64,000 bases of DNA. It comes from a virus. Every line of letters starts with the position of its first letter. Position 1 is the first letter of the stretch. The notes under the pieces are model-generated. The model was not told the origin of the DNA, searched no databases, and saw only the letters and a list, made by a program, of their open reading frames with translations. The DNA is taken from the IMG/VR virus record IMGVR_UViG_3300046753_000522, positions 37,941-101,940 of that record, one strand, 5' to 3'. Shown piece by piece: positions 1,079 through 18,495 of the stretch. The position numbers and the translations under genes were made by a program.

Positions 1079-3685
1079 TTAACTCACTCTGACGTATAAT
1101 GTAAATGTTTCTATTGTTTCGGAAGTATCTATAAGAGTGTCACCAGCATATTGCCCAGTGTACTGGTTGGTATAGGATCCAGCGTAATCTCCGCTGTATG
1201 TGCGATCACCAGAGAAATACCGAAGTCCTGTGAACGCGCTCGCGCCAGTATACTGCGAAGAGAATACACGATCGCCTTGATACTGTATGTTTCCGACAAA
1301 CTGGTTATCTGCTGTGTAATCGGTCGAGAATGTTCTCACTCCAGCGAATTGTCTTGTTCCTTGGAAGTTGGCAGATGTGCTGAAAGTATCTGGTTTGGTT
1401 CGACTTCCAGAGTATTGTCTCGGACCAGTGAAGTCTCCTGGAGTACTGAATGCTTGCGACGGCGCACGATCGCCAGAGTAGTTACGAGGTCCAACGAAGT
1501 TTTCTGGTCGACCAAATGGTTGCGTCCTTGACCTACTACCAGAATATTGTCGAGGTCCAGTAAAGTCTCCTGGTCGACCAAATGGTTGCGTCCTTGACCT
1601 ACTACCAGCAAATTGTCGACTTCCAGTGAAGTTACCTGGACCCGTGAAAGCATAATCCCTAACCCCAAGATACTGTACTGCGCGGTTTCCACCAAATGGT
1701 TGGTACACTACTCCAGGACGATACCAAGTTGTGTATCCGAGGTACTGGAATGGTCGATTCCCAGCAAAGACTCCAGGTCGAACGAATTGAGCAGGAACAT
1801 TTTGGGTATAATAGACCACCCTAGGACCAGCAAAAGACCTTGGTGCAGTGAAGGAAGAATTTCTTGCAAAACTTCCAGGACTTGGTGCTCCAGGTCGAAC
1901 ACCAGACCAGTTTAGCACAATTGTGCGACTCCCCGCGAAACTACGTGTGCCAGAAAATACCGAGACGATAGGTTGTCCGCTAAGGTTGACCAGGGGACTG
2001 GAAATCGGTGGAACATAGTACACCGAACTAAAAGATCTTTGTCCCACAAACGATCCGTTTGGGAAGTAGTACACGGCGGTGAACGACCCATTCGAGGGTG
2101 AACCACCACGAACGCCCGAAAAATACCGTATCCCTTGAAAGACTTGTTGCCCACCAGCAAAATTTTGCGATACCACTCCAGGTCGGAAAATGATCTGGTA
2201 TCCAGCAAATTGTCGCTGACCATTAAACTGCTGGGGCAAATACGCAGGGCGATAGTATGCAACTCCCCGAGAGTAATTTATCCCACGCGGTCCCGCAAAA
2301 TATTGATATATTACTGCAGGTCTGTATGCTGGTCTTGGTCCTGAAAATGCCCGCTGTCCACCAAAGGGTTGTGGACTTCTCGCGTATTGGTCAGAAAATG
2401 TTCTTGGTCCCGAAAAGGATCGAACCCCACCAAATGGTTGTTGACCTCCCGCGTACTCGCCAGAAAATGTTCTTGGTCCAGAATAGGATCGAACCCCAGC
2501 AAAGGTTTCTGGTGCACTAGCATACTGGCCAGAAAATGTTCTTGGACCCGAAAAGGTACGAACCCCAGCAAAGGTTTGAGGACTTCCTGCATAGTCTCCG
2601 GCAAAGTCACGCGTGCCAGCAAAAGAACGAACCCCAGCAAAGTCTGTTAGGGCAGAAGTGAAGTCGCCTGGATTATCTCTGAAACCAGAGAATCCCCGAA
2701 CTCCAGAAAATTGTTCGGGAGGAGCACCATAAGCAGAGGAATACGTTCTGTCTCCAGCAAATTGCCTCGTTCCCGCAAAGTCAGTGGGGTCAGAAGCATA
2801 GTCGCCAGCATAAGTTCTATCACCGCTGTACTGTACAGAAGAGAATCCGCTATACTGCCCAGCATACTGTTGACTCTCAGTAGTGTATCGAGTATCTACT
2901 GCTGCTCCTCTCGAAACCCAAGTTCCTGTATCTGTCGGTGCACCCTGCGCTGAACTTCTCAACTGGTAAGAACCAACCTGCCCTTGATCAAACTGTTTCC
3001 TGATCATTTGGCCAAAGGTGGTTGACACTTGGTCTTGGGTCATCGCCTGCAGACCATCGTTGTAGTCTGCCATTGGAATGACACCGTATGCGTCCCTGCG
3101 CACGTACATAGGAGAGCATGAGTCTGGCATAGTTCCAGAGGTTCTCTGCCAGATTGTATATGAGGTTACTGCGCCATCAGTAGTTGTATCGGTGAATACA
3201 TCACTAATAGAGGCGGTCCAGTCAGCACTTGGGGCAGATGCAGAGAGTCTGTATACTCCAGGATATTCTTGAGTTTCGATAATAGAAAGCAGAGAATTGC
3301 CGAGGGTTGACATTGTAGTCGAATTCATGTCACGAATACTTGTGGCAGAATCGGAATCCACCACTGGACGACGGAACGCCGACAACTCATCAGTTTCTAC
3401 CGTACCATCCTTTCTTTGAAAGAGATTGGTGGTTGTTGTTCCCACCGTGAGGGATGATGCTGGGTGCGTGCCCACAGGTTGCTCATAGAAAGTATTGACG
3501 AAACTGCCTATGAGGTTGTCGGAAGTGTCTCCCTCAACATTCAACGTAATTGAGGTGGCAGAATCTACGTCGGTTGCCAGATGTAACCCTGCTTGGTATG
3601 CAAGGTAATTGGCGTCCGAAGAAGATGCCCTCTTTAGATTACCGTTGTTATCCTTTAATACGACCGGAGTTGAACTTTGAGACAT
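1079..3685 (-). CDS. Putative fibre protein with long (F/Y)xGxR repeat region (paralog A)
   Basis: 868 aa; ~270 aa N-domain shared with 4974..7373; repeats of FAGxRxF; C-terminal ETFTLYVRVS; late promoter upstream. Confidence 0.65.
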   Translation of the reverse strand: MSQSSTPVVLKDNNGNLKRASSSDANYLAYQAGLHLATDVDSATSITLNVEGDTSDNLIGSFVNTFYEQPVGTHPASSLTVGTTTTNLFQRKDGTVETDELSAFRRPVVDSDSATSIRDMNSTTMSTLGNSLLSIIETQEYPGVYRLSASAPSADWTASISDVFTDTTTDGAVTSYTIWQRTSGTMPDSCSPMYVRRDAYGVIPMADYNDGLQAMTQDQVSTTFGQMIRKQFDQGQVGSYQLRSSAQGAPTDTGTWVSRGAAVDTRYTTESQQYAGQYSGFSSVQYSGDRTYAGDYASDPTDFAGTRQFAGDRTYSSAYGAPPEQFSGVRGFSGFRDNPGDFTSALTDFAGVRSFAGTRDFAGDYAGSPQTFAGVRTFSGPRTFSGQYASAPETFAGVRSYSGPRTFSGEYAGGQQPFGGVRSFSGPRTFSDQYARSPQPFGGQRAFSGPRPAYRPAVIYQYFAGPRGINYSRGVAYYRPAYLPQQFNGQRQFAGYQIIFRPGVVSQNFAGGQQVFQGIRYFSGVRGGSPSNGSFTAVYYFPNGSFVGQRSFSSVYYVPPISSPLVNLSGQPIVSVFSGTRSFAGSRTIVLNWSGVRPGAPSPGSFARNSSFTAPRSFAGPRVVYYTQNVPAQFVRPGVFAGNRPFQYLGYTTWYRPGVVYQPFGGNRAVQYLGVRDYAFTGPGNFTGSRQFAGSRSRTQPFGRPGDFTGPRQYSGSRSRTQPFGRPENFVGPRNYSGDRAPSQAFSTPGDFTGPRQYSGSRTKPDTFSTSANFQGTRQFAGVRTFSTDYTADNQFVGNIQYQGDRVFSSQYTGASAFTGLRYFSGDRTYSGDYAGSYTNQYTGQYAGDTLIDTSETIETFTLYVRVS
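1375..1640 (-). repeat. 66-bp (22-aa) coding tandem repeat, about 4 copies
   Basis: ctggtcgaccaaatggttgcgtccttgacctactaccag at 1504 and 1570; protein unit PGDFTGPRQYSGSRSRTQPFGR; limits approximate. Confidence 0.8.
2335..2640 (-). repeat. 69-bp (23-aa) coding tandem repeat, about 4 copies
   Basis: cagaaaatgttcttgg at 2392, 2461 and 2530; protein unit PxTFAGVRSFSGPRTFSGxYA; limits approximate. Confidence 0.8.
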
Positions 3686-3715
3686 TTTTTCAATGACCTA
3701 ATCTATGCTAGTCCT

Positions 3716-3723
3716 TATTTATA
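3716..3723 (-). promoter_or_regulatory. T4-type late promoter TATAAATA
   Basis: Exact consensus about 30 nt upstream of the 868-aa gene. Confidence 0.8.
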
Positions 3724-3733
3724 CAGGTCTAGT

Positions 3734-4495
3734 TTAGGGATTATCGTCCTCCTGATCGAATTTCTTTGCTTGACAGGAGAGGTGATATACAACAGTGTTC
3801 TCTGGCATCGGTTGCTTCGTTCTATCAAGGATTGCCCAGTAGTTCCAGCGCAAATCATTTTCGAAGATTCCGACCTTTAGGTCTTTATACTTGGGTTCTT
3901 TCTCAGTTAACCACCAAAGGGTAAATTGATCCCACATCGAAAGGTTTTCACGAGGATACAATTCGTCGTCAGGTTCGCCCTGTTCGTTAGTTGGCCACCA
4001 CTGATTCTTATTTTGTTTAATAAAGTACTCGTGCCAGTCTTTCATAAACTCCATCACCAACGGATTGCTGCTATCATACAGGCAGACAGCACCACAAAGC
4101 GTGAAGGTTCCTCCAGGGAACTCAGTATCCTTGAACACATACCACCGATCCCTCGGCAATCCCGTGAACATCATATCGTGGTCGCCAAGTTCGTCCCACA
4201 CCTTTGCGATATCTTCGTGGATAACCTCAGAGTCAGCATCGATATAGAATGTGAGGTCGTATGGAGTGTTCGCCATTCCCCACAACTTTTCTCGCACGCC
4301 GTTACCGCAAAGCAGAAGATCATCTGCTAGATCTGCTCTCTGGTCTAGAAATCTTTCTTCAGTTACGAGACAAACCTTTGCTTCAGGGTGATAGTCTTTA
4401 ATTGACTCAACAACATTACAGGCAAAGGAGTAGTAGCGATAGTGCCTTGATCCGACTACAACATAACCCCTAGTCTTTGATTGTGAACTCGACAC
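3734..4495 (-). CDS. Glycosyltransferase, GT-A fold (GT8-like)
   Basis: TPYDLTFYIDAD DxD motif; WDQ motif; RWNY. Confidence 0.75.
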   Translation of the reverse strand: MSSSQSKTRGYVVVGSRHYRYYSFACNVVESIKDYHPEAKVCLVTEERFLDQRADLADDLLLCGNGVREKLWGMANTPYDLTFYIDADSEVIHEDIAKVWDELGDHDMMFTGLPRDRWYVFKDTEFPGGTFTLCGAVCLYDSSNPLVMEFMKDWHEYFIKQNKNQWWPTNEQGEPDDELYPRENLSMWDQFTLWWLTEKEPKYKDLKVGIFENDLRWNYWAILDRTKQPMPENTVVYHLSCQAKKFDQEDDNP

Positions 4496-4973: not shown

Positions 4974-7373
4974 TCAGGTATCGGATACCCTACAGTACAG
5001 AGTGAAGGTGTCGATTGTCTGAATTTGTGATGTGATCGTTTGACCAGTATACTGGTTTGAATACTGTGAAGTGTAGTTTCCAGCATAGACGCCAGTGTAA
5101 GTTCCACTGTATTGCGCAGTGTATGTAGTTGGAACTTGACCCGTAAACTGATTGTCACGAGGACCAGCGTAGGTTCCGATATAGTTTCTATCGCCCTGAT
5201 ACTGGTCCCCGCGCGAGGCAAAATTTCTGTCCCCTTGGTACTGCTTACCGTATGTCCTTTTACCTTGGAACTGAGTAGATCTGACGAATTGTTGTGTCGG
5301 AGAAGTAAAATCTCCAGGTTTTATTCTTGTGCCAGAGAAACTTCGGACACCAGCATATTGAATAGGCACAAGAGTATAGAATAATTGGTTTCTCACGTAG
5401 TTATTACTGAAACTTCTTTGCCCAGCAAATTGCTGCGGAGTGTTTCTTTGTCGACTTCCCTGGAAGGGGTATGGGAACGGACCGCCAAAGTTATTAGCAT
5501 AATTGTATAATCTGTAACCTTGGTATGGTCTTGGATAGTAATACTCAACAGGGTAATTGGAGATGAAATTACGTTGACCTGTAAAGAAACTTGGAACGAA
5601 TCTCACCCCAGCAAAGGCACGTGATCCTGCATAATATCCTGGAGAAGAATATAACACATTCCGTTGACCGTTATAGTATACGACTGAATAAGTCGAAAAA
5701 GATTCCCTGACACTAACAGGTTGATATGTTTCTCGACCCTGAATCGGAACGCCACCACTGGAGAAATTGAGGTTGTCATCCCCTTCGTCAACCACGGGGA
5801 TGATCGGGTTGAAGAAGTAGTAAAACGGAGTTGGGGTTGGAGTTGGAGTTGGTCTTGGACTTGGAGTTGGAGAACTATTGTAGCGGACTCCAGTATAAGA
5901 CTGTGTAACTCCTCTTCCAAAGGGTAATTGTCCAGGACGATATAGTCCTTGGAACTGCTGAGGTCCGCCACCGAAATTGCTACCTACTGTGCGTTGAGCA
6001 GGCGTTGCCCTGTTTCCAGCAAAGGGGTATGGACCCAGTGTTCTATAGTTTGTGGCATAGGAAGATGTGACCCCGAACCCAGCGAATGGTTGAAGTCCTC
6101 CAGGTTGAACCCTGTATCCGCTAAATGCCCTTGTACGAAATCCGGCATAGTCGCCACCGTATGAGATCTGGCGCACCCCAGCAAATGTTCTGTCTTTCTG
6201 GCGCGCACCAGAATAATATGAGGTTACGAAATTCGTAAGTGGTGTAAGACCCCCACGCTGAATTGGTCTTGTATAATCATCACTAAAAGATCTTTGCCCC
6301 GAAAACTGTCTGGTTCCGGCGAACTGCCTTGTTCCAGCATAGTCACCACTATAGTCTCTCTGTCCAGCATAGGTGCCTACAAAGTTCCGAGAACCTTGAT
6401 AACTGCCAGTGTAGTTTCTGTCACCTTGGAAATTAAATGTTCGGAATCCAGAGTATTGAGTGTCGACGTCAGCGAAAGAGACGCCTGTATACTGACCAGT
6501 GTACTGCCCAGTGTATTGCCTCGTGTATTGAGGACTTGTAAACTGTACCGTGGCATACTGCAAATCTTGTACGATATGTTGTGTGTCAGTTGCTGTACCT
6601 CTTGCAACCCACGTACCGCTTGCTGTAGGCGCTCCCTGCGCCGAGGAGCGTAGTTCGTAATCGCCCACCCCAGTTGTTGATTGACCGATCAAAAGGATCT
6701 CTCGTGCTATCTCCTTCGCCTCCTCCTTCGTTATCTCTCTTAGGTCAGGACTGACGCCATCATTGAGAGCAACGGGGAAGTGCACGGGAATATTCGGTTC
6801 TTCTACAATAGAATTTTGTGTCAGTCTCCAGATATGATAGATGATATCGCCGGAAGTGCGAGTATCGGTGAAAGCAGAATCAATCCACTTTGTCCAACCA
6901 GAACCTGGAGATGACTGAGAGAGTTTAAAGGCACCAGCAAATGTGTTTACATGAACCTGCCCTGCGATTCTCTGCGCTAACTCGAGTATTCCCGCATCTT
7001 GCATTTCATATATTTCGCCGTCACTATCTGTTACGACAGGAATGGGGTAGGAACGGATATATCGAGTAGTGCTGGCAGAGTCTGCCATTTGATATAGGTT
7101 GGTGCTGATTGTCCCTTCACTGATAGAAGTTCCAGGGTGAGTCCCGACAGGTTCGTTATAGAAGGTATCGACATATGTGCCGATGAGATCCGCATTGTCA
7201 GAGTCAAGGGTTAGACTCTTGCTGTATCGGTCAGTCGTATTAGGATAAGTTGTGATTATCTTTTCCGATGCCCAATACGCCATCCATTCTTCTAATGCGG
7301 CATCAGACTGCTGTACACTTCCGTCTCCAGCGCCCGTCTTTAGAGTCAGCGGTATTGATTCATATGATGACAT
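4974..7373 (-). CDS. Putative fibre protein with (F/Y)xGxR repeats and a central PT-rich stretch (paralog B)
   Basis: 799 aa; shares TFYxxPVGTHP, LRSSAQGAPT..GTWV.RG.A.DT and C-terminal TFTLYxRVS with paralog A. Confidence 0.65.
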   Translation of the reverse strand: MSSYESIPLTLKTGAGDGSVQQSDAALEEWMAYWASEKIITTYPNTTDRYSKSLTLDSDNADLIGTYVDTFYNEPVGTHPGTSISEGTISTNLYQMADSASTTRYIRSYPIPVVTDSDGEIYEMQDAGILELAQRIAGQVHVNTFAGAFKLSQSSPGSGWTKWIDSAFTDTRTSGDIIYHIWRLTQNSIVEEPNIPVHFPVALNDGVSPDLREITKEEAKEIAREILLIGQSTTGVGDYELRSSAQGAPTASGTWVARGTATDTQHIVQDLQYATVQFTSPQYTRQYTGQYTGQYTGVSFADVDTQYSGFRTFNFQGDRNYTGSYQGSRNFVGTYAGQRDYSGDYAGTRQFAGTRQFSGQRSFSDDYTRPIQRGGLTPLTNFVTSYYSGARQKDRTFAGVRQISYGGDYAGFRTRAFSGYRVQPGGLQPFAGFGVTSSYATNYRTLGPYPFAGNRATPAQRTVGSNFGGGPQQFQGLYRPGQLPFGRGVTQSYTGVRYNSSPTPSPRPTPTPTPTPFYYFFNPIIPVVDEGDDNLNFSSGGVPIQGRETYQPVSVRESFSTYSVVYYNGQRNVLYSSPGYYAGSRAFAGVRFVPSFFTGQRNFISNYPVEYYYPRPYQGYRLYNYANNFGGPFPYPFQGSRQRNTPQQFAGQRSFSNNYVRNQLFYTLVPIQYAGVRSFSGTRIKPGDFTSPTQQFVRSTQFQGKRTYGKQYQGDRNFASRGDQYQGDRNYIGTYAGPRDNQFTGQVPTTYTAQYSGTYTGVYAGNYTSQYSNQYTGQTITSQIQTIDTFTLYCRVSDT

Positions 7374-7384: not shown

Positions 7385-8554
7385 TTATGGATTCAACAAC
7401 ACGCCAGAACGATCGTATACGTTTGGAATCCTCGCATTTAATTCGTCGACTATTTCGTGGATAGTAATCGAACTGATGTTTCCATTAGTTATACTACCAG
7501 GACCAGAAGATGGGATAGTTATCTCTCCCAAGAACTCTGCGTTGGCGCCAGTGAAATCGATGGCAGTTGTTGTACCAGATTGTATCCTAAGTTCGCCATT
7601 GTTATCGACTAGTCTCGCATAGGTAGTGCCATCCTCTTTCAAAGTGAGGAACCCGTCGCCGTTGTCAAGGGTGATTCCTGAGGAGGCATCGACCACAAAT
7701 GCGCCTGTCACATATCCAGTGTTAGTGGCACCCAGAGTCCAGTTGATTCTTTCTTGACCGCCATGCCTAAACTTGATGTTATTGCCACCAGCATCGAGAA
7801 TGATATCATCTTCGGCATCGATTTCGACACCATCGTCGCCGCTGATCCTCATATACCCAACCGCCTCAATAGTGGTAGAGTTTAAGAGGAAACGGAAGAC
7901 GTCTACATTATCGTCTTTGAATACAATTGTGCCTGCGTCAGCATCGAGAACGATGTCTTCAGTGGCATCAATGACATAGTTGCCATTTGATGCGACAGTG
8001 TTAGTTGGACCCATCGTGTGAGTCAGTCTTGTTGCGGCACCATCGCGGAAGTAGATATGATTTCCGTCAGCATCAAGAGTGATGTTTCCAGTGACGTCGA
8101 GTATGAAGTCGCCGTTGACCGTATTCTTCCAATCACCGTTCGTGATAATGTCTAACGCAGAGTCAGTAATGATCTGCCCAGCGTTTGCATCAAAGACTGC
8201 TTCGATCTCGTTGATAGCACCAACAACAGTCTTTGCTTCTGTGTGAGTCAATTGAGCAAAGTTACCGCCACCTGCGCCGTGCAGGTCACTATCCAACTCA
8301 TTGATGGCGACTACCAGATCAGTCTTGCCATGGATAGGAAGCATGTCGGTCGTACAACCATATCGGTCGACCGTTGACAATGCTTCTGTGGTGAGCATGT
8401 TACGATCACCAATAGCACTATCCAAGTATCGCAGATCGCTATCAACCACATCAGCGTTATCGTTCATGTGGAAGATCATCTGCTGGAAAGTATCAGTTGT
8501 CTCGTATATAATATGAGGAACTTTTACTGCTTCTGTAGGATTGCTCGATGCCAT
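7385..8554 (-). CDS. Virion structural protein (fibre/whisker-like)
   Basis: DLVVAINEL/TVVGAINEI motifs and repeated DIxLDAxG beta units typical of phage fibres. Confidence 0.6.
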   Translation of the reverse strand: MASSNPTEAVKVPHIIYETTDTFQQMIFHMNDNADVVDSDLRYLDSAIGDRNMLTTEALSTVDRYGCTTDMLPIHGKTDLVVAINELDSDLHGAGGGNFAQLTHTEAKTVVGAINEIEAVFDANAGQIITDSALDIITNGDWKNTVNGDFILDVTGNITLDADGNHIYFRDGAATRLTHTMGPTNTVASNGNYVIDATEDIVLDADAGTIVFKDDNVDVFRFLLNSTTIEAVGYMRISGDDGVEIDAEDDIILDAGGNNIKFRHGGQERINWTLGATNTGYVTGAFVVDASSGITLDNGDGFLTLKEDGTTYARLVDNNGELRIQSGTTTAIDFTGANAEFLGEITIPSSGPGSITNGNISSITIHEIVDELNARIPNVYDRSGVLLNP

Positions 8555-8555
8555 T

Positions 8556-8780
8556 TTATTTTACCAATTCCTTGACAAGTTCTTTGAGTTCTGCGATCTC
8601 AGAACGGAGTTCTTGAACCTCCGACTTCATTCTCGCGTCCTCTATCTTCTTTAGTTTCTTTTGTTCCTTGCGCTCACGGGCGCGTTGTATCTCTCTCACA
8701 TTGGTATTTATAATAGCACCCGTGGTCTCATCCTTATATAGATTTGGATGATGCACAATTTTCTTGTACTGTGAACCCAT
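8556..8780 (-). CDS. Small conserved coiled-coil protein
   Basis: HPNLYKDETTGAIIN plus coiled coil; usual neighbour of the DUF4815 gene in T4-like phages. Confidence 0.65.
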   Translation of the reverse strand: MGSQYKKIVHHPNLYKDETTGAIINTNVREIQRARERKEQKKLKKIEDARMKSEVQELRSEIAELKELVKELVK

Positions 8781-11700
8781 CAGATTACCGCAATTGCTCG
8801 AATGTTTCGGAGAACTGGTGTCTGAGTGGTATTCGTAGTCTTGAATACAACCTTCATCTGATACTGCACAAAGTCAGGAAGATCTCCTCCAGGACCACCC
8901 GCCAACCAAGTGTACTCACTGAAGATGAGAGGATCAATTACCTCAGTCATCTCAGGATTAGCACGAGGGTAGACTTCTGGTTCGAGGTAAGTCCAAGGCA
9001 CACTATAAAGGTCAGTATCTAAGTCCGCTGCAACTCGATAGTAGAAGTCGATGTTTGCTGCTGGGGGTCGATAGATCTGGGCAAAGACCCGTAATCCATT
9101 CGCGGCACTCGGCACACCGATGATTCGAGTGATGTGCTTCGATGGCGATGTACCCGCCACAGGGTGTGTTTCAGGAACATAGATCGTAGGCACGTTGGGG
9201 AACAACTCGCCTGCCGTATTAGCAGAGTCGCGAGGTTGATTATCGATGAGACTATTTTTCATCGTATAACCCATACCCTGTAGATCAATGAACGGCGAAA
9301 CATCAGAAATAAACCCACGACCAAATAGACCCTGACTCGAGTCATCATTGATGCCAAAGTTTGAAGACTGTACACTGTTTAGCGTAGTGCCGACAATCAG
9401 CGATGGTTGGTTCTTACCCTCTTGCACATCATTCTCTGCATCCTCGCATGCCATGTATCGAGGTTTGATAAAGCGATGCACCATACGGTTCTGGATCAAC
9501 TGATTCTTAACATCGTAACGGGGGTCGTTGTTCTCAGTCAGATATGCCTCTGCCCAAGAGTATCCAGTAATGAACGATGCATCATATTGAATAAACGTGC
9601 TGGTCAGTTCAACTGCTTCCATGTTCATAGAACCGAGGTCGAAGTTGAAACCGTAGTTGGTGCGAACGGAGTCACTACCAAAGAATCCAGAATTGGCAGT
9701 GAATGTATCACCACCTGCGAGTTCTACAAAGTACCCACCAATGTCTGCTTCGGCAACTTGGTTGATTGGATTCATAATCTCTGAACCAGTAACTCCAGCG
9801 TATTCTTCGGTAGAGTCAAGACCAGTCATACCCACAACATCACCTACACCCAGACCATGACCATAGTGATTTACTCGGAACCTTGTCAGATCGTTCTCGT
9901 CAACGTTGAGTGTAGTCGGTCTGTTGTGACGGAACTTCGGCAACGGTGCGTTGTAGAAGTTGGTCGTACCGCTTGGTTTGAATTTAGCGGTCTTAATTCG
10001 ATATGCCAAGTCTTGGTTCTGCTTCGGCGTCCAAGTTGAACCGTTCTGCGACAGGAACAATGAACCCTTCGCTGGTTGCTTGTGCACTCGGCGGTTTGTC
10101 TTACCGAGGTGCAGGTCATAGGTCGTGGCACAAAATGCTTGATACTTGTCGCACTCTGCGAGCAGCACGAACGCAAACTCAGCACCTGCCTGTAAGTAGA
10201 ATGGTTCGGGGAACGTGAAGGTGACAGGGTTTGCCAGAACCTCATCAAGATCTTCGAGTCCGGCACCGTCTTTAATTCTTTGTACGACTTCGTAAACTTC
10301 GTCAGCACTAACGTATGCACGATGCTGCTCGCTGATAAAGTTATTGACGGGCACTCCGTTCTCAACGGGTCGGATTTGTATCTGTAATGGGATAGCAGGA
10401 TCCATTCCACCGTTAGTGGAAGTCTTTGGCGCACTACGGATGAATACATCAATAGAAGTAACGAACACTCCTGGAACTCCAAGAGAAGGATCGACCGTAA
10501 ACGATTGTGCCAGAGGATCAAACCATCGTACTGTCTCTTCCCTGTCGAGGAAGAATTCATTGGTGATCACTCGAGTTGATAGAACCTGTCTCTGAAGAAT
10601 ATTCAGTGAACCCTGACCACTGTAGGTCGTTCGTGCGCGCGAGAGAGCAAACTCTTCAGCGTTGTCAGAAACGTCAAGTAGTTTGACAGTCTGTGTGCCA
10701 GCACGGAACTTCCAACCGATATCGTTCATGACGCGAGCATCTTTAGAACCTTCGTATCTTGCTGATGCGTTTCTTTGTGCGGCAATCCAACCTTCCCACT
10801 CATCAAGGGTAGTGAACGTGTCGCCGCCAGGAACACGTGCTGTGTTGGGCAACCAGAAGTCAAACCAGAGTTTACCTTCTTCATCTGTCTTCAAGACATT
10901 AGAGGTCGCTGCGGTTGCAAAGGGGTGACGGTTAAGTGTTACGTCCACGTCCTCGTAGTTGCGGTTCATCACACCCTGGTTAAAGAGTGCCTGATATCCA
11001 GACTCGTCGGGAATAGAGATTACCCACTGAGATACGTCAACGTCGCCAAAGTACAACCAAAAACGAGTGTACGGACGCAGACCCTTTGCAGATCCGATAA
11101 TGCGTCTCTGTCGCAAGAAGGGTAGGGCACCAAGAGATACTGTAACGTCACCAAGATCTTGTTGTACTACCTGATCGCTGACTACCTCGCTACGGATCGT
11201 TTCACGAACTGTTCGTACTCCTGGTTGCCAGAATTCAAAACCGTTCCAACGAATAACTCTTCTTCCTGGTTCACCACCCTGACTCTGCCCAGCACCTTGA
11301 CCAGCACGAGGTCCGGCAATGTGTAGGGCAGGAATCTGTTCTTCCCAAGTTCTGGGGATAACATCAACAGCGCCGATGTTTACGACTTGTGTACCACCAT
11401 TGATAATATTATCGGGCAGTCTTCGTTGATCGATCCACCTATCAACAGATGGACGTACCTGTAAGAAACCCTCATTAGCAAATACGTTGAATGGGTTTAC
11501 GTTGTAGTAACCACGCTCTTCGTAACTGCGGTCGTCCGAGTACCAAGAGATAACTTCCTGCTTCATGGTCTCGTCAAGCACTTCTTCGTGCTCGAGCATG
11601 ATCAGGTCACCTTTGCGTACAATATCTTGATTTGTCAGTGTGGTTCTTTGTCTCTCGATACCAATCCAGTTATCGGTTAGGGCAAGGTTATCTGAGTCCC

Positions 11701-14506
11701 ACATTAAGTTGGTCTGCGACAACAACTGCTTGGGATAGATTTGCCTCTGCATCGGATCAATTGCGCTGGTTGTTACGCCTCGATCTTCAATGTACCGATT
11801 CTCTCGGACGGATGCTGTCAGAGCATAACCCTTGGTGAAGTCGTCAGCAAAGAAACCTGACTTGACACGGACGTTACCGTCTGAGTCATATTCAATGAAA
11901 GTGCTTGCCTCTTGCTCTAACAGTGTGAGCGAAAGAGTATCCTCAAGGTTGGTGATTCTCTTGTCGAGTTTTGCGATCTCAGTCATGCGATATCGCTTGT
12001 GAGACATCTTCACGATGTCCATGTCCTCGACGTTCTTAGTGTTACCGTTCATATAGACGGTATACAGAATCATCTCATTTGGTTTCTTCGCGGGGGGAAG
12101 TGGTTGCAACGCGGGAATGCCCTTGTTGTAGATCATCTTCCTTCGGAAATTCTGCCTACTATATCCGATACAAACGTGGTCGATTCTTTGATGATACCAC
12201 TGAACATCATAAGTAATTTGATCGCCATCGCGCGGCAACTCAAAACGATCACCGTCTGGCATAGTATCAGAGGCGGGATCAAGTTTGCTACGGAAATCAA
12301 AGTAGTCATGAAGAGGTATGCGTTGACCTGTTCGACGAGACTGGTATGTCGGAATGTCACCATAGTCGAATATGTTACGGTCAGACAGGTCGTATGAGTT
12401 GACCGAGAAGTAATCTCCGTCGTTACCCCAATCAAAGTAAGAGACCTTCGCGAAAAGAGTGGTTACTCCCTGAGGGATCAACGTGCTCTTGACCACAGCA
12501 GGTTGATAGAAGTTATCTCTCGCGCCGCCATCAAACGTAACGGCATTGATGTAGTTTGTCCCTGCTGAGTCGACTTCCGTCAGACTCAACAATTGGAGAC
12601 CGTCATACAGAGGGTCATCAAATTCAAACGTATCTGCTTGAAGGTCGGGGTCAGAAGAACGAGTCAACGTCACCCAATCTTCTGTATAAGTCTTGGACTT
12701 AGCAGTTGCGTTGTTCTTTCGCACGTATGCCCAAACAACATAGTCGGAACCTGCGGCACCAGAAGTAGTAATTACTGCGTCTTGATTAGTTATCTTGACC
12801 TTGCCCGCAGGGAGATATTCAGTACTGTTGGTGGTAACATTCAACAGAGTCCACTGACCTTCGTCTTCAAACGACTCGTTAGCACCACAACGAATGCTTA
12901 CAGTGACGGTGCCGTCAGGATTATTGACTGACTGATCAAAGAACTGGCGTTGCACAACAAACTGCACATCTGTTGCCGATTTAACTCTACCTCCAGGAAT
13001 CAAATACAGAGAATCGTTCTCGCGAGGTTCCACAACGTAGAGGTTATTGTCCTCGAGATAGGGTTCCATTACTGCCGCAGAACCATCGGTGTATTGACTG
13101 ATACCAGTCACGTTCCGCAAGTTTTTATTATCTTGCATCTGTATGTCATATAGGTGAACGCGGATATGATCTTCGTCCTGAGTACCCATATTTCGGATAG
13201 TTTTAATCCTTGCGGTCCCGACCTCTTCGGTGCCGTCCCAAAGTTTATGATTTGTCTGAAGTTTTAGGTCGCCGCCATTATAGAGGTCGAGTCCTGTATT
13301 CGAATCGTCGATATAAGGTATCTGTACATAGTTCTTATACTCAACGTCAGAAGTAGTATCTGAGTCGTTGGAGAACGTCAGGGGTTTCTCGACACTCATT
13401 TCCTTAGGAAGGTCATGTATCAGTCGGAAACCGTCAACGTATGCAATAGGGTTGTTACCCGCAACCATGTGCGGAATATCGAGAGTGAACGTGTCGCTAT
13501 CATCTTCCTCGAATCGAATCAAGAAATCCTGCGCAATGAAGTCGCCGGAGGTTTCCTTTGAACGAATCGCCAATCTTTCTTCGACTTTATTGAATCCACT
13601 GCTCGCGTCTTTCTGTGCAATGATTGTACCCTTACGGATCCAAGCGAATGAAACAAAGTTAGAAACGTCAGCGACGTCTACCTTCTTAATCAACTCCATC
13701 TGTATGCGATATCGATCAGCACCTGGAGCAGACAGGTTGGGTCTTGCACCTTGGTTGTCGTAGAGATTATTGTCGTCGAGTACCGTTACAACATCTTGTG
13801 ATACCTCAAACCCAACGATTGCGTCTGGGTCTTGGATATATTCGCCAACAATGATTTTCTGTGAGGGGGCATAGACAAAGTGCTCTTGAACATAGAACTC
13901 AGCACTCTGCATACCGTATGCGAGACCCTGACCGACAGACTCGAGAAGGGAGTTGGCGGGTTTAGTTCGTACAACCAACTCACCAACCTGCGGTACGAAA
14001 CCAGAGAGAGTTCGGATGTCGGTGATTGTGTCGCCTTCAGAGAAACGCAGAGTTTGCGGTTGAATGTCGTCGTTTTCTTGACCTTGATTGTTAGAAACGT
14101 ATCGACCGTACAGCGTTGTGTACTCAGTGTTATCATCTTCGTAGAAGTTAGTCTGTTGATGCGTTACCTCAAACTGCAAACCGCCCGTGATACCAGGAAT
14201 CGCCGGACCTTGGAAAATGACGCCAACATAACTTGAGGGGGTGCTATTGTTCCATTCTTCGACAATGACATACTCTACGTCGAATAGTGTTCCACCAGCA
14301 GAGGGCACAGAAGTTGCCGCACCATCCTGAAAGATATTATTCGCAAATCGACTGATCTGTCTCTGCAATATTGTTTGCAGAGTAGTAAGTTCCCTCGCTT
14401 GTAGAGAACGACCACTATTGAACAGAACTTTGTGGTATCCGTCGCTGTCGAGGAAGTCGTCTTTATAGACTTCCCTGAATGTTGTTCCTGTAAACTGCTC
14501 TGGCAT
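8780..14506 (-). CDS. Large baseplate-associated structural protein (DUF4815/VrlC-like)
   Basis: 1908 aa; YKDDF...YHKVLF..GR.LQARELT.LQ, APGADRY, KSGFFADDF, NVNPFNVF, DPLAQSF, GSLFLSQNG.TW motifs. Confidence 0.85.
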   Translation of the reverse strand: MPEQFTGTTFREVYKDDFLDSDGYHKVLFNSGRSLQARELTTLQTILQRQISRFANNIFQDGAATSVPSAGGTLFDVEYVIVEEWNNSTPSSYVGVIFQGPAIPGITGGLQFEVTHQQTNFYEDDNTEYTTLYGRYVSNNQGQENDDIQPQTLRFSEGDTITDIRTLSGFVPQVGELVVRTKPANSLLESVGQGLAYGMQSAEFYVQEHFVYAPSQKIIVGEYIQDPDAIVGFEVSQDVVTVLDDNNLYDNQGARPNLSAPGADRYRIQMELIKKVDVADVSNFVSFAWIRKGTIIAQKDASSGFNKVEERLAIRSKETSGDFIAQDFLIRFEEDDSDTFTLDIPHMVAGNNPIAYVDGFRLIHDLPKEMSVEKPLTFSNDSDTTSDVEYKNYVQIPYIDDSNTGLDLYNGGDLKLQTNHKLWDGTEEVGTARIKTIRNMGTQDEDHIRVHLYDIQMQDNKNLRNVTGISQYTDGSAAVMEPYLEDNNLYVVEPRENDSLYLIPGGRVKSATDVQFVVQRQFFDQSVNNPDGTVTVSIRCGANESFEDEGQWTLLNVTTNSTEYLPAGKVKITNQDAVITTSGAAGSDYVVWAYVRKNNATAKSKTYTEDWVTLTRSSDPDLQADTFEFDDPLYDGLQLLSLTEVDSAGTNYINAVTFDGGARDNFYQPAVVKSTLIPQGVTTLFAKVSYFDWGNDGDYFSVNSYDLSDRNIFDYGDIPTYQSRRTGQRIPLHDYFDFRSKLDPASDTMPDGDRFELPRDGDQITYDVQWYHQRIDHVCIGYSRQNFRRKMIYNKGIPALQPLPPAKKPNEMILYTVYMNGNTKNVEDMDIVKMSHKRYRMTEIAKLDKRITNLEDTLSLTLLEQEASTFIEYDSDGNVRVKSGFFADDFTKGYALTASVRENRYIEDRGVTTSAIDPMQRQIYPKQLLSQTNLMWDSDNLALTDNWIGIERQRTTLTNQDIVRKGDLIMLEHEEVLDETMKQEVISWYSDDRSYEERGYYNVNPFNVFANEGFLQVRPSVDRWIDQRRLPDNIINGGTQVVNIGAVDVIPRTWEEQIPALHIAGPRAGQGAGQSQGGEPGRRVIRWNGFEFWQPGVRTVRETIRSEVVSDQVVQQDLGDVTVSLGALPFLRQRRIIGSAKGLRPYTRFWLYFGDVDVSQWVISIPDESGYQALFNQGVMNRNYEDVDVTLNRHPFATAATSNVLKTDEEGKLWFDFWLPNTARVPGGDTFTTLDEWEGWIAAQRNASARYEGSKDARVMNDIGWKFRAGTQTVKLLDVSDNAEEFALSRARTTYSGQGSLNILQRQVLSTRVITNEFFLDREETVRWFDPLAQSFTVDPSLGVPGVFVTSIDVFIRSAPKTSTNGGMDPAIPLQIQIRPVENGVPVNNFISEQHRAYVSADEVYEVVQRIKDGAGLEDLDEVLANPVTFTFPEPFYLQAGAEFAFVLLAECDKYQAFCATTYDLHLGKTNRRVHKQPAKGSLFLSQNGSTWTPKQNQDLAYRIKTAKFKPSGTTNFYNAPLPKFRHNRPTTLNVDENDLTRFRVNHYGHGLGVGDVVGMTGLDSTEEYAGVTGSEIMNPINQVAEADIGGYFVELAGGDTFTANSGFFGSDSVRTNYGFNFDLGSMNMEAVELTSTFIQYDASFITGYSWAEAYLTENNDPRYDVKNQLIQNRMVHRFIKPRYMACEDAENDVQEGKNQPSLIVGTTLNSVQSSNFGINDDSSQGLFGRGFISDVSPFIDLQGMGYTMKNSLIDNQPRDSANTAGELFPNVPTIYVPETHPVAGTSPSKHITRIIGVPSAANGLRVFAQIYRPPAANIDFYYRVAADLDTDLYSVPWTYLEPEVYPRANPEMTEVIDPLIFSEYTWLAGGPGGDLPDFVQYQMKVVFKTTNTTQTPVLRNIRAIAVI

Positions 14507-14517: not shown

Positions 14518-16011
14518 TTAAAGGTCGATGACGATCTTAATGTCTTCGGTTTGTTCGTCGTCACGTTCAATTGGCGATCTATTGTCTATGTAGATAACTT
14601 TTCCAGAGAAGTTATTCACTTCTGCGGGTCGTAGGTTTGGACCGAATGCATTCTCACGAATACTTGCAGTACCACCACCTTCATTAACAGTTACTTGCTC
14701 AGCACTATCATATGGTAGGAATCCTGTCCTTCCGTTTTGATGCACATAGAGAATGTTATTCTCATCATCAAAGTAGTTAATGATTGACTGCGCACCAGTA
14801 GTAGTTCCAGTCACAATCTGGTCGCCAGTAATGTTGTCTGCATTGAGACCACTGGTAACCCAAAGTTGCTTGTATGCCTGCGCGGTTGGGGCAGACAGTG
14901 CAGAGTCTCTTCCAGTCATCGGGAAGTCACCATACTGAGCGGAGTCGCGTAACGGATTCTGCACCAGACCGATCTGACGGAAGTCATTCTCTACGTTAAA
15001 GTCACCGCCCTCAACACCAGTCAGTGTGGTCTGGAACATCAGACCAGAGGAGTTGAGGTCACGTCGAGGGTCAGCACCCATTCCTGGATTCTGCGAGGTG
15101 ATGGCACGGAGTTCAGCACCGCTACCACCACCACCCGAAACGCGAATTGATGCGTGGTGATAGTTTTGTCCGAATGAATACAACTCGTCTGATGAGTCAT
15201 CCTTCATGATGATCTCACCAATGAGACCTCCTGGAGTGATATTGGCATATGCCTTTGCTTCGACAATCTGTGTTCCATAAATGGGAATGCCCACGATCTC
15301 GATTTGCGGACGGGAAGTATAACCCACACCTGCCGAGTCAATAGCAATACCCAATAGTTCTCCAGGGATTGCTTGCTTCTGAACCTCTAATTGCTTTTGG
15401 CGAGTTGTTGACAATTCGTCGTAGGGCGGTCCACCTTCTTCAGAATCTAAAACTCTCTCAACAGGCATATAACCTGAAGTTAGATAGTTTCTTGCTTCAA
15501 CAGTACCGACAGTGTACATGTATCTCCAGATGTATCCGTCGTCTCCAACCGAGAAGGGATACCCCGAAATATCGTTGGGTTTAAACAATGAGTTCTTTGG
15601 CGTTCCGTTTGATGCTCGACCTTGCTGTAAGCAGACGAATACGTTGTTCTCATCGGTGAGGACATAGTAGGGATACTGTATATCGCCAAAGGGTGCGATC
15701 TGAGTGTTCGAACCATAGTTGTTATCCCATGCTTCGTAGACCTGACCAGCAGTCCAGTTCCATCGCGGAACAACGTATGTTACGTTGGGAACCAACTTCA
15801 TTGACTGGATGCTTTCTTGGAACCTCAGAGTCTCGCCACGAGAACTATTGGGGATAGGTGGTTGCGCATCGGAATCCCATTCCTCGGTACGACCAATCGC
15901 CATATAGAATCGATCAGAATCCTCGTCGGAATCCAAGTCCAGATTCAAATAATCTGCATAGATCCTATCGAGGATGTCCCACTTAAAAAAGTCTGATACT
16001 GTTGCTGCCAT
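14518..16011 (-). CDS. gp8: Baseplate wedge subunit gp8
   Basis: VVPRWNWT.G..Y, YYVLTDE.NVF.C, DGYIWRYMY, SGKVIYIDNR.PI.R...Q.EDIKIVI. Confidence 0.85.
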   Translation of the reverse strand: MAATVSDFFKWDILDRIYADYLNLDLDSDEDSDRFYMAIGRTEEWDSDAQPPIPNSSRGETLRFQESIQSMKLVPNVTYVVPRWNWTAGQVYEAWDNNYGSNTQIAPFGDIQYPYYVLTDENNVFVCLQQGRASNGTPKNSLFKPNDISGYPFSVGDDGYIWRYMYTVGTVEARNYLTSGYMPVERVLDSEEGGPPYDELSTTRQKQLEVQKQAIPGELLGIAIDSAGVGYTSRPQIEIVGIPIYGTQIVEAKAYANITPGGLIGEIIMKDDSSDELYSFGQNYHHASIRVSGGGGSGAELRAITSQNPGMGADPRRDLNSSGLMFQTTLTGVEGGDFNVENDFRQIGLVQNPLRDSAQYGDFPMTGRDSALSAPTAQAYKQLWVTSGLNADNITGDQIVTGTTTGAQSIINYFDDENNILYVHQNGRTGFLPYDSAEQVTVNEGGGTASIRENAFGPNLRPAEVNNFSGKVIYIDNRSPIERDDEQTEDIKIVIDL

Positions 16012-16026: not shown

Positions 16027-16854
16027 TTATGATGCGCCGACTACAGATTGTACGGTCACACCTGTGTCACTTGATAGATGCCAGTTATTACCTGTCCATA
16101 TTAAAGATACTACTGCGTTCTGCAGAACATCGATTTGTGCACCGTTTGCAAAGTTTACGGGTTCAAGGTAGCACTTTGCTACATTAATGTTCACAAACCT
16201 TTTAACGTCGCCGATATCAATGCCATCGTCGAGATAAACTCGGAACGGAGTAGATGATTTATTAAGTAGAGTCGTCGCCTTTGCAAGTGATGCTCTTGCT
16301 TCGTGATTTACAATCGTCTCGTTGTCAAGAACAACCCGACCGTTGACGCGAACAATACCACCATTCAAACCGCTCAGGAGGAGGTCAACATCTGCGCTGT
16401 CGCCACCGACCGTCAAACTAACGCCACTGATGCTGTCGCCGTTTGTCAGCACCACGTGGTTCGGTAGTGTTCCGCTACTCCGGAATGCTAAAAGTATGTC
16501 GCCGTCAGAGTCATGAATGTCGTCGACAACGGGGTGTAGCAGAGTCTTGTTTTCAAGAATGTCAACTGTGTCCTTGAGTACCACAGTGCCCGATGCTGCT
16601 GGCAGAGTGATGTTGTAGTTGGCAGAAGTTGCGTCCTCCGCTACCAGTTTGGTGACGTAGTTGTTCGTGCCTTCGAATATAATTGCGCCCGCAGAGTCGA
16701 ACGAAATGTTTTGGGACAAGTATGAGTCGGAAGATCCTAAAACTCTCCAAACATTTGCAAAGTTGTTATTGATCTTCGTAGCAGCATCACGGAGTGTATC
16801 ACCCTTGCCGTCATTCGCGACTACCCCATTGTTTAGTATTGATCGTGTTGCCAT
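16027..16854 (-). CDS. gp9/gp10-like baseplate tail-fibre connector
   Basis: N-terminal G..ANDGKGDTLRDA..KIN.NF motif. Confidence 0.65.
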   Translation of the reverse strand: MATRSILNNGVVANDGKGDTLRDAATKINNNFANVWRVLGSSDSYLSQNISFDSAGAIIFEGTNNYVTKLVAEDATSANYNITLPAASGTVVLKDTVDILENKTLLHPVVDDIHDSDGDILLAFRSSGTLPNHVVLTNGDSISGVSLTVGGDSADVDLLLSGLNGGIVRVNGRVVLDNETIVNHEARASLAKATTLLNKSSTPFRVYLDDGIDIGDVKRFVNINVAKCYLEPVNFANGAQIDVLQNAVVSLIWTGNNWHLSSDTGVTVQSVVGAS

Positions 16855-16881
16855 TACTGTTGTCCTGTAAATTTATGTTTG

Positions 16882-16889
16882 TATTTATA
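16882..16889 (-). promoter_or_regulatory. T4-type late promoter TATAAATA
   Basis: Exact consensus, intergenic. Confidence 0.8.
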
Positions 16890-16893
16890 CTGT

Positions 16894-18495
16894 TTACTCA
16901 TCACTATCAAAGTAGGTGTGAGGATCTTCTTTGTAACTCCAGTTTGAGTTATCTTCTCTCAAATCTGAGTCTAGGATTCCAGGCGTCTGGTTGTAGTCGA
17001 GTATCGGGTTCGCATAACCTGCTTGCGAATATATCTCGGTCGTTAGGGCAATGGGATTCCCGAAGATATCGGCAAACTCAGTAGTAATATAATCTTCCTG
17101 CTCTGTAATTATTATCTCTCCGAATTCGCCGATTCTAGGCGTTCCAATCGGGGGTGTCGGATAATTAACCCATTCTGAATTGTGATTAGAATTCCAAGCA
17201 CTATCATAGTACGACCAGTGATAGTTGTTCTCATCCAACAAGTTCATAGTGTTGGAGAGGTCTGGCGCCACTTCGTCGAACGTTCGACCATCTGCGATAT
17301 CCGCACGGTATACGCTTGGATACTGTAAGTGCCACTTCTCGACATTCCTGTAGGAGAACATATCGTTTGGTTGCGTTCGTATCTGTGCACCACGCTCTTG
17401 TATGTCAGCAGGTCCAGGTCCGATCTCGGTGATATCAGTATGGAAGATAGGTCTCTTCCTGCGCCACTTGTCTCCGATCGGTGCCCTCTCGATAATCTCT
17501 ACTGGCGGTGGCGGTTCGATGATGGAAGGTTGCGGTCCAAGGTTAAAGTCGTATTCCGACAGAATAACAACCTGACCAGCAAGATACATTCCTGCTGGGT
17601 GGATAAATGTTTTGTATGCCTCTTTCCAAGTGTTGACGCCAACGGGTGTTTCGATCAACAGGGCATATAACTGATAGAATTTGTCGTTGGTAATCTTTTT
17701 GTCGGTAACGTCTGAACCGATAGTCGTGTACGGAGTATCCCGCACCGTAGTGATTTTCAACTCGGCATCTTCGGGCAACCAAGCATTGTCGTTCATCTCT
17801 CGGATGATGGCATCGTTTGGCGCCAGATACTCTTCAGCAGGTTCTTTCTGAGAAGAGGAAGTTCCCACAAACACCAAGGTACGGTCGATTCTTCTCAGAG
17901 TGATGAATCGATTGGTGAAGTCCATGATGTAGTCAAGGTCTTGACGTAGTATGACCCACTCGCCCTTGGTGTTCTTAATTTCGACCGTTACATCGGCGCC
18001 CAAGAAAGTGTATGGGAAGTTACTGCCCCCCAACTGACCCTCACCTTCGTAGATGAGAACTTCTTCCAGAGGATCACCAACGTAGAATATCTCGTCCTTA
18101 CCGTACCGAACATCAATGTCAAACCCGTAGAAGATACGGAAGAACTGACGGATCGAATACTCGGTGCCCTTTGACCGATACAGTAGGTTTGAGTATTGTA
18201 GTGCTGTTCTCTTGTCGTTGAATGACTCAAAGTATGGTTTGCCTAACAACAACTCGTTCGCAATGAACGTCAAGAACTCTTGCCGTGCTATTACAATATC
18301 TCTCGATATCAGGAGGTCATTGAGTGCCTCCGTCGGCATATTATTTTCTTCAAGTGCTTCATAGTATTTGATCAGGAACTTGGTGAGTTCCGGATACTTA
18401 TCATCAAAATGTCCTGGAAGAACTTCAAAGACGTGATACTTGTCAAAGTCAAGCGCGCGCCGATAGTTATCTGTTAGTGTCTTATCTAACGGCAT
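16894..18495 (-). CDS. Baseplate wedge initiator, gp7-like
   Basis: LYRSKGTEYS...FFRIFYG and HPAGM motifs; directly follows gp6. Confidence 0.7.
   Translation of the reverse strand: MPLDKTLTDNYRRALDFDKYHVFEVLPGHFDDKYPELTKFLIKYYEALEENNMPTEALNDLLISRDIVIARQEFLTFIANELLLGKPYFESFNDKRTALQYSNLLYRSKGTEYSIRQFFRIFYGFDIDVRYGKDEIFYVGDPLEEVLIYEGEGQLGGSNFPYTFLGADVTVEIKNTKGEWVILRQDLDYIMDFTNRFITLRRIDRTLVFVGTSSSQKEPAEEYLAPNDAIIREMNDNAWLPEDAELKITTVRDTPYTTIGSDVTDKKITNDKFYQLYALLIETPVGVNTWKEAYKTFIHPAGMYLAGQVVILSEYDFNLGPQPSIIEPPPPVEIIERAPIGDKWRRKRPIFHTDITEIGPGPADIQERGAQIRTQPNDMFSYRNVEKWHLQYPSVYRADIADGRTFDEVAPDLSNTMNLLDENNYHWSYYDSAWNSNHNSEWVNYPTPPIGTPRIGEFGEIIITEQEDYITTEFADIFGNPIALTTEIYSQAGYANPILDYNQTPGILDSDLREDNSNWSYKEDPHTYFDSDE

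Follow-up and report, generated by a model that had tools for sequence, protein, structure and literature searches.

Why should the proteins on the outside of a phage tail carry one three-residue sequence far more often than chance allows, and the proteins inside it hardly at all? The question is raised by the final 64 kb of a viral contig of 101,940 bp (IMG/VR record IMGVR_UViG_3300046753_000522, here G000; 60% complete), a stretch of 64,000 nucleotides that we call the window. With open reading frames (ORFs) called by a simple longest-ORF procedure, its large genes all lie on the minus strand and include a T4-like tail module with gp8, a protein with the gp9/gp10 N-terminal domain, a gp7-like wedge, a giant DUF4815 protein and fibres; capsid, portal, sheath, tube, neck and further fibres are encoded upstream on the same contig. 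A megablast search of the window against deposited phages returned no nucleotide-level match; the closest deposited phage is C48C1, with a gp8 identity of 32%, and gp8 identity to cyanophages, pelagiphage Mosig and Melnitz is ~27%. A preliminary description of this DNA had counted the tripeptides Asp-Ser-Ala and Asp-Ser-Asp (DS[AD]) in seven fibre and outer-baseplate proteins and had read them as an O-glycosylation sequon. Our analysis supports DS[AD] as a genuine linear motif that is specific for Ser, under selection and restricted to proteins of the tail periphery. We further propose, with confidence that stands about even, that D-S-[A/D] is the acceptor code, or sequon, of a phage-encoded, soluble, cytoplasmic Ser O-glycosylation. 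In the literature we found no description of a D-S-[A/D] phage motif or of a glycosylated T4-like marine phage.

The hand counts proved exact: 3, 4, 4, 7, 7, 3 and 3 sites in the seven proteins, 31 in 5,269 amino acids (aa). The chance expectation, given as about 4, is 3.9 by composition, and the frequency in the outer tail, baseplate and fibre proteins is thus ~8 times chance. When the seven proteins were permuted one by one 20,000 times, the shuffled sets held 3.83 ± 1.94 sites with a maximum of 15 (z = 14; Poisson p 4e-18), so that the enrichment survives correction for composition, and each of the seven proteins is enriched individually. Ala or Asp follows 31 of their 41 DS dipeptides (binomial p 6e-19, f(A)+f(D) being 0.138 in the background), whereas the other 56 ORFs of the window have A or D after only 2 of 38 (Fisher p 7e-11). 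These two sites are the only ones in the window outside the seven proteins: one, at 26411-26419, is the single site that had been claimed for the ten inner-baseplate and hub proteins (18495-32462), the other lies at 42306-42314, and ORFs beyond 45.4 kb have none. DSD accounts for 16 of the 31 sites. Since all six Ser codons (TCT, TCC, TCA, TCG, AGT and AGC) are used at the sites, the signal lies at the protein and not the DNA level; a DNA-level motif was ruled out by these and by the occurrence of both Asp codons.

One might suspect that composition, paralogous repeats or the choice of one tripeptide by hand had produced the excess, and some fibre sites do fall within paralogous repeats, including those of C48C1. 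The shuffles speak against this, however, and when all 8,000 tripeptides are ranked in the seven proteins, DSD comes second and DSA third (p ~1e-9 each), behind only FAG (22 vs 1.6 expected), a product of an unrelated hexapeptide repeat. Proteins free of repeats, gp8 among them, show the strongest excess; that of gp8 and that of the DUF4815 giant, which likewise has no repeats, are each significant, and paralogous repeats are thereby ruled out as the sole cause. With all seven proteins enriched and the result replicated in dozens of diverged genomes, we regard the chance of an artefact as negligible.

The distribution of the motif extends along the contig and across relatives. The upstream 38 kb hold ~46 further DS[AD] sites, in the sheath (all three of its DS dipeptides), the neck proteins gp14 and gp15, a 220-aa protein (four of four DS), a 290-aa protein and fibres of 723, 970, 878 and 1773 aa; a single site occurs in the portal, and the major capsid protein, scaffold, tube and terminase are free of them. 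Scanning IMG/VR with a gp8 profile gave 80 loci, which we called positive when the observed/expected ratio of DS[AD] was at least 3. The ratio is bimodal, with 50 loci at or above 3 and 15 below 1, and metagenomic gp8 homologues at 33-96% identity mostly carry 2-7 sites where ~0.5 are expected. In the pooled positives (212,899 aa), DSA occurs 488 times vs 98.7 expected (z = 39), DSD 463 times vs 95.3 (z = 38), and the next tripeptide reaches z = 17; these scores are descriptive only, because the positive set is defined by the trait itself. The motif is not a general property of phage fibres. That candidate was ruled out by cyanophage P-TIM40, pelagiphage Mosig, Melnitz and the negative genome G008, none of which shows an excess, their counts being at or near expectation (9 vs 11.8, 5 vs 8.0 and 11 vs 9.3 in the 41-kb structural regions of P-TIM40, Mosig and Melnitz). 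DUF4815-giant orthologues of phages lacking the trait have 0-2 sites, and the family of the 275-aa gp9/gp10-domain protein occurs in 41 of the 50 positive loci and in none of the 15 negative ones.

The gp8 tree resolves two clades with support of 100. One, holding the cyanophage, Mosig and Melnitz, has no positives; the other has all 50, with C48C1 and L066 nested within it as a secondary reduction. In C48C1 the excess is retained in three fibre proteins only, and its gp8, DUF4815 giant and 3347-aa fibre have no DS[AD]. Enrichment in DS[AD] is a trait of one large clade of uncultured marine T4-like phages. As to the residual sites of C48C1, they include those of a 1568-aa baseplate-to-fibre connector and a 457-aa fibre (L005 15164-19870, 26531-27904) and lie in regularly repeated, coiled-coil-like segments (LIDSA[DE]ATAI; L[IV]TDSDI[TL]).

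The pooled positives also allowed the motif to be refined to D-S-[A, D > S > N, G], with Pro disfavoured directly after it. DSS, DSN and DSG are mildly enriched, and before E, F, L, Y, M, Q, R, K or P the dipeptide DS is at least 2-fold rarer than expected (DSL 40 vs 92, DSM 1 vs 16); DSI (60 vs 87) and DSV (59 vs 90) also fall below expectation. Thr is excluded (DTA 76 vs 110 expected, DTD 52 vs 103), and ES[AD] and NS[AD] are not enriched, the Asp before Ser being obligatory. Directly after the motif Pro occurs at 0.1-0.2 times and Gly at 2.2 times expectation, and hydrophobic residues precede it. The preliminary description had linked the motif to the general O-glycosylation system of Bacteroidota, which transfers a glycan en bloc in the periplasm to non-cytoplasmic proteins at D-(S/T)-(A/L/V/I/M/T) (PMC12871550). 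If the host were a member of that group, its own machinery might read the phage sites; DSA fits its sequon, and Asp at position -1 is strictly required in both (PMC12871550). The link fails, however, on the exclusion of Thr, the depletion of L, I, V and M and the acceptance of D as commonly as A at the third residue, and on the place of the reaction, since the lipid-linked glycan is transferred in the periplasm (PMC12871550) and virions assemble in the cytoplasm. We therefore consider this explanation very improbable.

How the sites are placed is best followed in gp8, identified by PF09215 (Phage-Gp8, 42.2 bits) and phrog_438 (E 1e-70). Positives have on average 4.1 DS[AD] per gp8 and negatives 0.37. 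The sites are spread over 49 alignment columns in ~13 loop regions, and several keep their position down to 36-40% identity. At homologous DS columns the third residue is A in 111 cases, D in 80, S in 73, G in 30, N in 21 and T in 17, with A and D both found in 13 of 26 columns. Gp8 of the negative clade has unrelated residues at the columns orthologous to sites; at column 790, where the two clades share an ancestral DS, it reads DSV or DST in the negative clade and DSD, DSS, DSN or DSA in the positive one. Placement of DS[AD] is thus not imposed by the gp8 fold. The sites had been expected to map to surface loops. In an AlphaFold2 model of gp8 (predicted local distance difference test, pLDDT, 88) all seven are found in coil, where a strand ends or where a short helix begins, with exposure judged from the secondary structure of the model only.

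Let us consider, then, that DS[AD] might be an element of structure or metal binding, for example a turn of the Asx/ST type or a loop that ligates Ca2+ or Mg2+, which would stabilise exposed loops or allow cation-bridged adhesion to host polysaccharide. The clade would have adopted it for ecological reasons, and the glycosyltransferase (GT) cluster discussed below would be unrelated to it, remodelling host lipooligosaccharide or lipopolysaccharide (LOS/LPS) during infection. Such an element would suit the location of all gp8 sites in loops and the positional conservation of several of them, as well as the hydrophobic residues before and the Gly after the motif, which are what a strand end followed by a turn would show; many fibre sites, moreover, stand in recurring contexts (YVDSAxxA, AIDS[AD]FLDERM). 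It accords poorly with the unrelated residues that the sister clade uses in the same loops, and the exchange of Ala for Asp at the third position is ill-suited to a ligand.

Further difficulty for the structural explanation comes from proteins that lack the motif. In the inner-baseplate homologues of eight positive genomes the dipeptide DS itself occurs only 51 times vs 135 expected (in single genomes 2 vs 17.8 and 2 vs 18.2), compared with 60 vs 70 in six negative or ambiguous genomes. The avoidance was replicated in 13 contigs selected by a GT25 gene (108 vs 234 expected, p 2e-20). This purge, ~2.5-fold and restricted to positive genomes, is left unexplained by a local turn or ligand loop, and so is the giant repeat protein of 2884 aa, in which each of 44 repeats has a structural DS with I, T, K, Q, L, R, E or S as the next residue, A or D taking that place in 0 of 44. 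The repeats of this protein (G000:C1:29628-38282, overlapping window positions 1-342) number ~44, are 22-26 aa long and share the core x-[SGT]-D-S-[ITKQLR]-V-x-G-x-x-E-R; no homologue of the protein was found among the related loci. On balance we think a structural or metal-binding role unlikely, though with a real chance of being right, and hold that the motif is probably read by some trans-acting factor, of whatever kind.

Which factor might this be? The preliminary description had pointed to a GT cluster at 38.5-45.4 kb, and soluble GTs with tailoring enzymes were indeed recognised there by Pfam (threshold E <= 0.01) and by fold. None of the nine cluster proteins has a transmembrane helix or a signal-like N-terminus, and no flippase or oligosaccharyltransferase is recognisable in the cluster. 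PHROGs, Pfam and NCBIfam searches returned nothing for the ORFs at 384-1076, 3734-4495, 4470-4931, 38558-39193, 39190-39828 and 42445-43251, and searches of PDB sequences with the 211-aa and 268-aa proteins of the cluster gave nothing useful. The sulfotransferase has no homologue in the 16 other genomes compared, and therefore the tailoring enzymes of the cluster vary between relatives. A role in DNA glycosylation appears unlikely, the thymidylate-synthase/dCMP-hydroxymethylase family being absent from four of five positive genomes, including a complete one.

GT genes and the motif are distributed together, as had been asked of gp8 orthologues and GT genes across T4-like genomes, and relatives without GTs lack the enrichment. 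Each of G000, G001, G002, G003, G007 and G010 has 3-5 paralogues of PF01755 (GT25); none occurs in the negative G008 (81% complete) or in C48C1, P-TIM40, Mosig and Melnitz, whose genomes are complete. That 40 short gp8 contigs gave no match to it is uninformative, each being 7-25% complete. Without GT25, C48C1 still has the genes of the 211-aa protein, the carbamoyltransferase and a GT8-like protein. The structural module of one relative includes a GT25 gene, placed immediately between gp8 and the DUF4815 giant (L133:3766-4440 = G010:C1:43766-44440). The association was also examined from the side of the enzyme. The GT25 paralogues (n = 20) being too diverse for a pattern scan, an alignment of the GT25b subfamily was used instead, and long contigs were chosen by this subfamily alone; 13 of them, two apparently near-identical, also held gp8. 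All 13 show the motif excess in the structural module, and eleven 29-52 kb pieces of these contigs contain 515 DS[AD] vs 114 expected. No real GT25b homologue occurs among 50,697 deposited phage records. The only weak matches were in OQ504982-OQ504984 (Synechococcus phages S-8S53, S-8S55 and S-8S56), at 31-33% identity over half of the protein, two of the three within genes annotated as 2OG-Fe(II) oxygenase-domain.

Genome-wide screens were made for ORFs specific to the clade. Every ORF of G001 was taken for which a match in G002 was found and none in G008, P-TIM40, Mosig, Melnitz or C48C1; five ORFs remained, the two most widely distributed of which are GT25 paralogues, the other three being small or unassigned. 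The same screen of the complete G053 (149,135 bp, with terminal repeats) left three GT25, two GT8-like, a 429-aa, an 81-aa and three structural or baseplate-region ORFs. GTs are the only recognisable clade-specific enzymes in these screens, which found no kinase or other transferase family specific to the clade. This bears on a further possibility, that the motif is a code for another trans-acting factor: Ser might be phosphorylated, or receive a phospho-sugar or an acyl group, by a phage or host enzyme, or the tripeptide might dock a decoration or assembly protein, with the GTs merely sharing the clade. The motif statistics demand a reader without saying which, and the two clade-specific unassigned ORFs, of 429 aa (G053 40354-41643) and 81 aa, would be available for such a role. 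Against this stands the restriction of recognisable clade-specific enzymes to GTs, and we judge a reader of another kind rather unlikely. The 429-aa ORF, which has no Pfam match (L258:354-1643 = G053:C1:40354-41643), occurs in G001, G002, G052, G053, G006 and G009; it is absent from G008, P-TIM40, Mosig, Melnitz and C48C1 and from the 60%-complete contig of the window.

We propose the following scenario. DS[AD] would have been gained repeatedly in exposed loops of the outer region of the sheath, the neck, the outer baseplate and the fibres, with DS purged from the buried inner baseplate. The 211-aa protein encoded at 38558-39193, or else one of the GT-A enzymes, would add the first sugar to Ser; the GT25 and GT8-like paralogues would then extend the glycan, and methyl-, sulfo- and carbamoyltransferases would tailor it, yielding a coat on the tail exterior. 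For the full form of this scenario, a self-contained system in which a mini Maf-like enzyme or a GT-A paralogue reads the motif and the GT25 and GT8-like enzymes build a methylated, sulfated or carbamoylated glycan over the whole tail exterior, our confidence is somewhat short of even.

The candidate for the initiating step deserves attention. Its family is found in every covered trait-positive genome, only in C48C1 among the 50,697 deposited phage records, and in 1,576 clusters of metagenomic sequences, with a Pfam domain in none of the 120 clusters listed. An AlphaFold2 model (pLDDT 85) aligned by VIA-align with the Maf structure 5mu5_A (Z 11.5, root-mean-square deviation 3.8, 172 aa) and with CstI (2p56, Z 10.3), and its best Foldseek matches were CstII (E 5e-3). 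Judging from this model, the protein has the fold of the Maf catalytic domain and of Campylobacter sialyltransferases. Maf enzymes O-glycosylate exposed Ser/Thr of flagellin in the cytoplasm (PMC11339370).

A number of points weigh against sequon-directed glycosylation. GT25 is best known from LOS/LPS synthesis, and the GT25 activities characterised so far are mostly of that kind, which also favours the structural explanation; since the family is known mainly from this context, the cluster could act on the host envelope instead. The sequence D-S-D-G has the look of a common type-I turn or of a loop that binds Ca. In phage proteins outside the structural set, DS is not clearly avoided beyond baseline. 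The gene association is confounded by phylogeny: because the trait and the GTs map to one gp8 clade, their co-distribution amounts to about one event and one partial loss (C48C1/L066). Among motif-positive genomes, G006 (37% complete) has no GT island at the syntenic slot, and the contigs G004 and G005 are without GT25, the expected region lying off the contig. The 211-aa protein has no Pfam match (E <= 0.01), and its PDB profile search came back empty. NeuB and CTP_transf_3 (a synthetase of sugars activated by cytidine monophosphate, CMP) are absent from five phage genomes, one of them complete; the donor sugar for a Maf-like enzyme may be supplied by the host. Maf proteins are ~600 aa long, ~3 times longer, with flagellin-binding parts and CMP-nonulosonate donors, and the phage protein corresponds to a 211-aa core; for Maf enzymes, moreover, no sequon is known (PMC11339370). 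What we observed are motif statistics, clade distribution, turnover of positions, avoidance in buried proteins, gene co-distribution and folds; modification of the Ser, its nature as a glycan and the identity of the initiating enzyme are steps that we infer. In view of both, we take D-S-[A/D] as a plausible, still unproven signal for attaching a sugar coat that the phage itself would make.

Features of the window that carry or lack the motif, and the candidate enzymes, with the positions of individual sites
Feature	Position	Strand	Sites and remarks
868-aa fibre, [FY][AS]GxR hexapeptide repeats	1079..3685	-	3 DS[AD], all in N-terminal 112 residues: 3557-3565, 3350-3358, 3344-3352
253-aa ORF	3734..4495	-	language-model lead to nucleotide-diphospho-sugar transferases (PF03407/GT8) only
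799-aa fibre, repeat paralogue of the 868-aa fibre	4974..7373	-	4 DS[AD], N-terminal 165 residues: 7197-7205, 7074-7082, 7020-7028, 6873-6881
389-aa fibre or spike-like protein	7385..8554	-	4 DS[AD]: 8435-8443, 8414-8422, 8285-8293, 8156-8164
1908-aa DUF4815/VrlC-like giant outer-baseplate protein	8780..14506	-	7 DS[AD]: 14441-14449, 13493-13501, 13358-13366, 12563-12571, 11879-11887, 11690-11698, 9221-9229
gp8 baseplate wedge, 497 aa	14518..16011	-	7 DS[AD]: 15925-15933, 15913-15921, 15868-15876, 15331-15339, 14938-14946, 14899-14907, 14701-14709
275-aa protein, gp9/gp10 N-terminal domain	16027..16854	-	3 DS[AD]: 16690-16698, 16504-16512, 16393-16401
533-aa gp7-like wedge	16894..18495	-	3 DS[AD] in C-terminal 103 residues: 17197-17205, 16963-16971, 16900-16908
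Ten inner baseplate and hub proteins, 4,452 aa	18495..32462	-	one DS[AD] (26411-26419); DS 8 vs 19.5 expected
211-aa soluble Maf/GT42 sialyltransferase-like protein	38558..39193	-	candidate initiating Ser O-glycosyltransferase
212-aa GT8/nucleotide-diphospho-sugar-transferase-like protein (GT-A)	39190..39828	-	
GT25 glycosyltransferase, paralogue a	39825..40490	-	PF01755, 43.2 bits (cut-off 24)
GT25 glycosyltransferase, paralogue b	40487..41212	-	PF01755, 42.3 bits (cut-off 24)
S-adenosylmethionine (SAM) methyltransferase	41209..41808	-	Methyltransf_24
Sulfotransferase	41805..42464	-	Sulfotransfer_1 (PF00685); holds stray DSA 42306-42314
268-aa GT8-like protein	42445..43251	-	weak Pfam match on G053 orthologue
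Third, divergent GT25-like paralogue	43248..43859	-	18.3 bits, below cut-off 24
NodU/CmcH-type carbamoyltransferase	43856..45385	-	also in trait-negative phages, so not trait-specific

The 253-aa ORF at 3734-4495 had been put forward as a GT building the coat together with the cluster. It does not track DS[AD] and drew a blank in the family searches; it goes with the FxGxR fibres and is present in C48C1, a phage in which the motif is gone from gp8, the giant baseplate protein and the giant fibre. Its language-model lead suggests a separate, fibre-specific modification or assembly function. With the ORFs at 384-1076 and 4470-4931 (230 and 153 aa) it forms a cassette with the FxGxR-repeat fibres, found in L029, L055, L022, L064, G001, G052, G053 and phage C48C1. 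All three ORFs were ruled out as writers of the motif by this co-travel and by their occurrence in C48C1. The fibres at 1079-3685 and 4974-7373 consist largely of [FY]-[AS]-G-x-R-x hexapeptide repeats (38 and 21 [FY][AS]G matches); the repeats are free of DS[AD], which occurs in the N-terminal parts of the two proteins.

If our proposal were true, prokaryotes and their viruses would have a second known O-glycosylation sequon, and viruses of bacteria their first: a strict code of three residues whose readers are small and soluble enzymes. The phages of a large oceanic group would carry sugar on their adsorption apparatus, which would matter for host range, for withstanding proteases and grazers and for the way in which virions stick to marine polysaccharide gels, and the tag and its enzyme would make a compact pair for glyco-engineering. 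As motif, targets and a short list of candidate enzymes are defined, the prediction is directly testable with recombinant proteins.

Lastly, it is useful to set the proposed system beside those already described. Bacterial O-glycosylation generally proceeds without a sequence code, the Bacteroidota motif being the only known exception (PMC12871550). That system resembles the phage one in its three-residue code with an obligatory Asp before the hydroxy residue, in including DSA and in the frequency of the motif above composition in the target class of proteins. It differs in that the phage motif takes Ser only, with A or D and then S, N and G at the third residue and L, I, V, M and T depleted; in that the phage targets are virion proteins assembled in the cytoplasm and the candidate enzymes are all soluble; and in the lipid-carrier, flippase and oligosaccharyltransferase genes, none of which was recognised in the phage. 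A precedent for the acceptor is that of SdgB, a Ser O-GT with DSD as minimal acceptor, which together with SdgA adds N-acetylglucosamine to the Ser-Asp repeat adhesins of staphylococci (PMC8561734). Here, as in our model, a second enzyme extends the glycan and exposed surface proteins are shielded. SdgB and SdgA, however, belong to the GT-B (GT4) enzymes, have a DUF1975 insert and work on long tandem SD repeats, whereas the phage sites are isolated, with DSA and DSD equally frequent. When the nine ORFs of the cluster and the clade-specific ORFs were scanned with Pfam, only GT25, GT8-like and tailoring enzymes came up, and no GT-B/DUF1975 enzyme.

Phages that decorate their own virions are known from mycobacteriophages, whose GTs glycosylate the C-termini of their own capsid and tail-tube subunits (Freeman et al., 2023, PMC10527164, as cited in PMC12619734). 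As far as the citing account goes, these share with our model the phage-encoded GTs acting on the phage's own virion proteins, but they are siphoviruses and work without a tripeptide sequon, whereas here the exterior of a T4-like tail would be the target, capsid and tube are free of the motif, and the glycan is a predicted one. The Maf system (PF01973; 5mu5) offers cytoplasmic Ser/Thr O-glycosylation of a self-assembling, extracellular filament protein, as our model would have it for the tail, and shares its catalytic-domain fold with the modelled 211-aa protein; in contrast to Maf systems, the phage encodes no nonulosonate pathway. By the features tested, the phage system is not a member of any of the families compared. 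The closest working likeness, by analogy, would perhaps be a flagellin-type cytoplasmic glycosylation that is directed by a sequon and applied to a phage tail.

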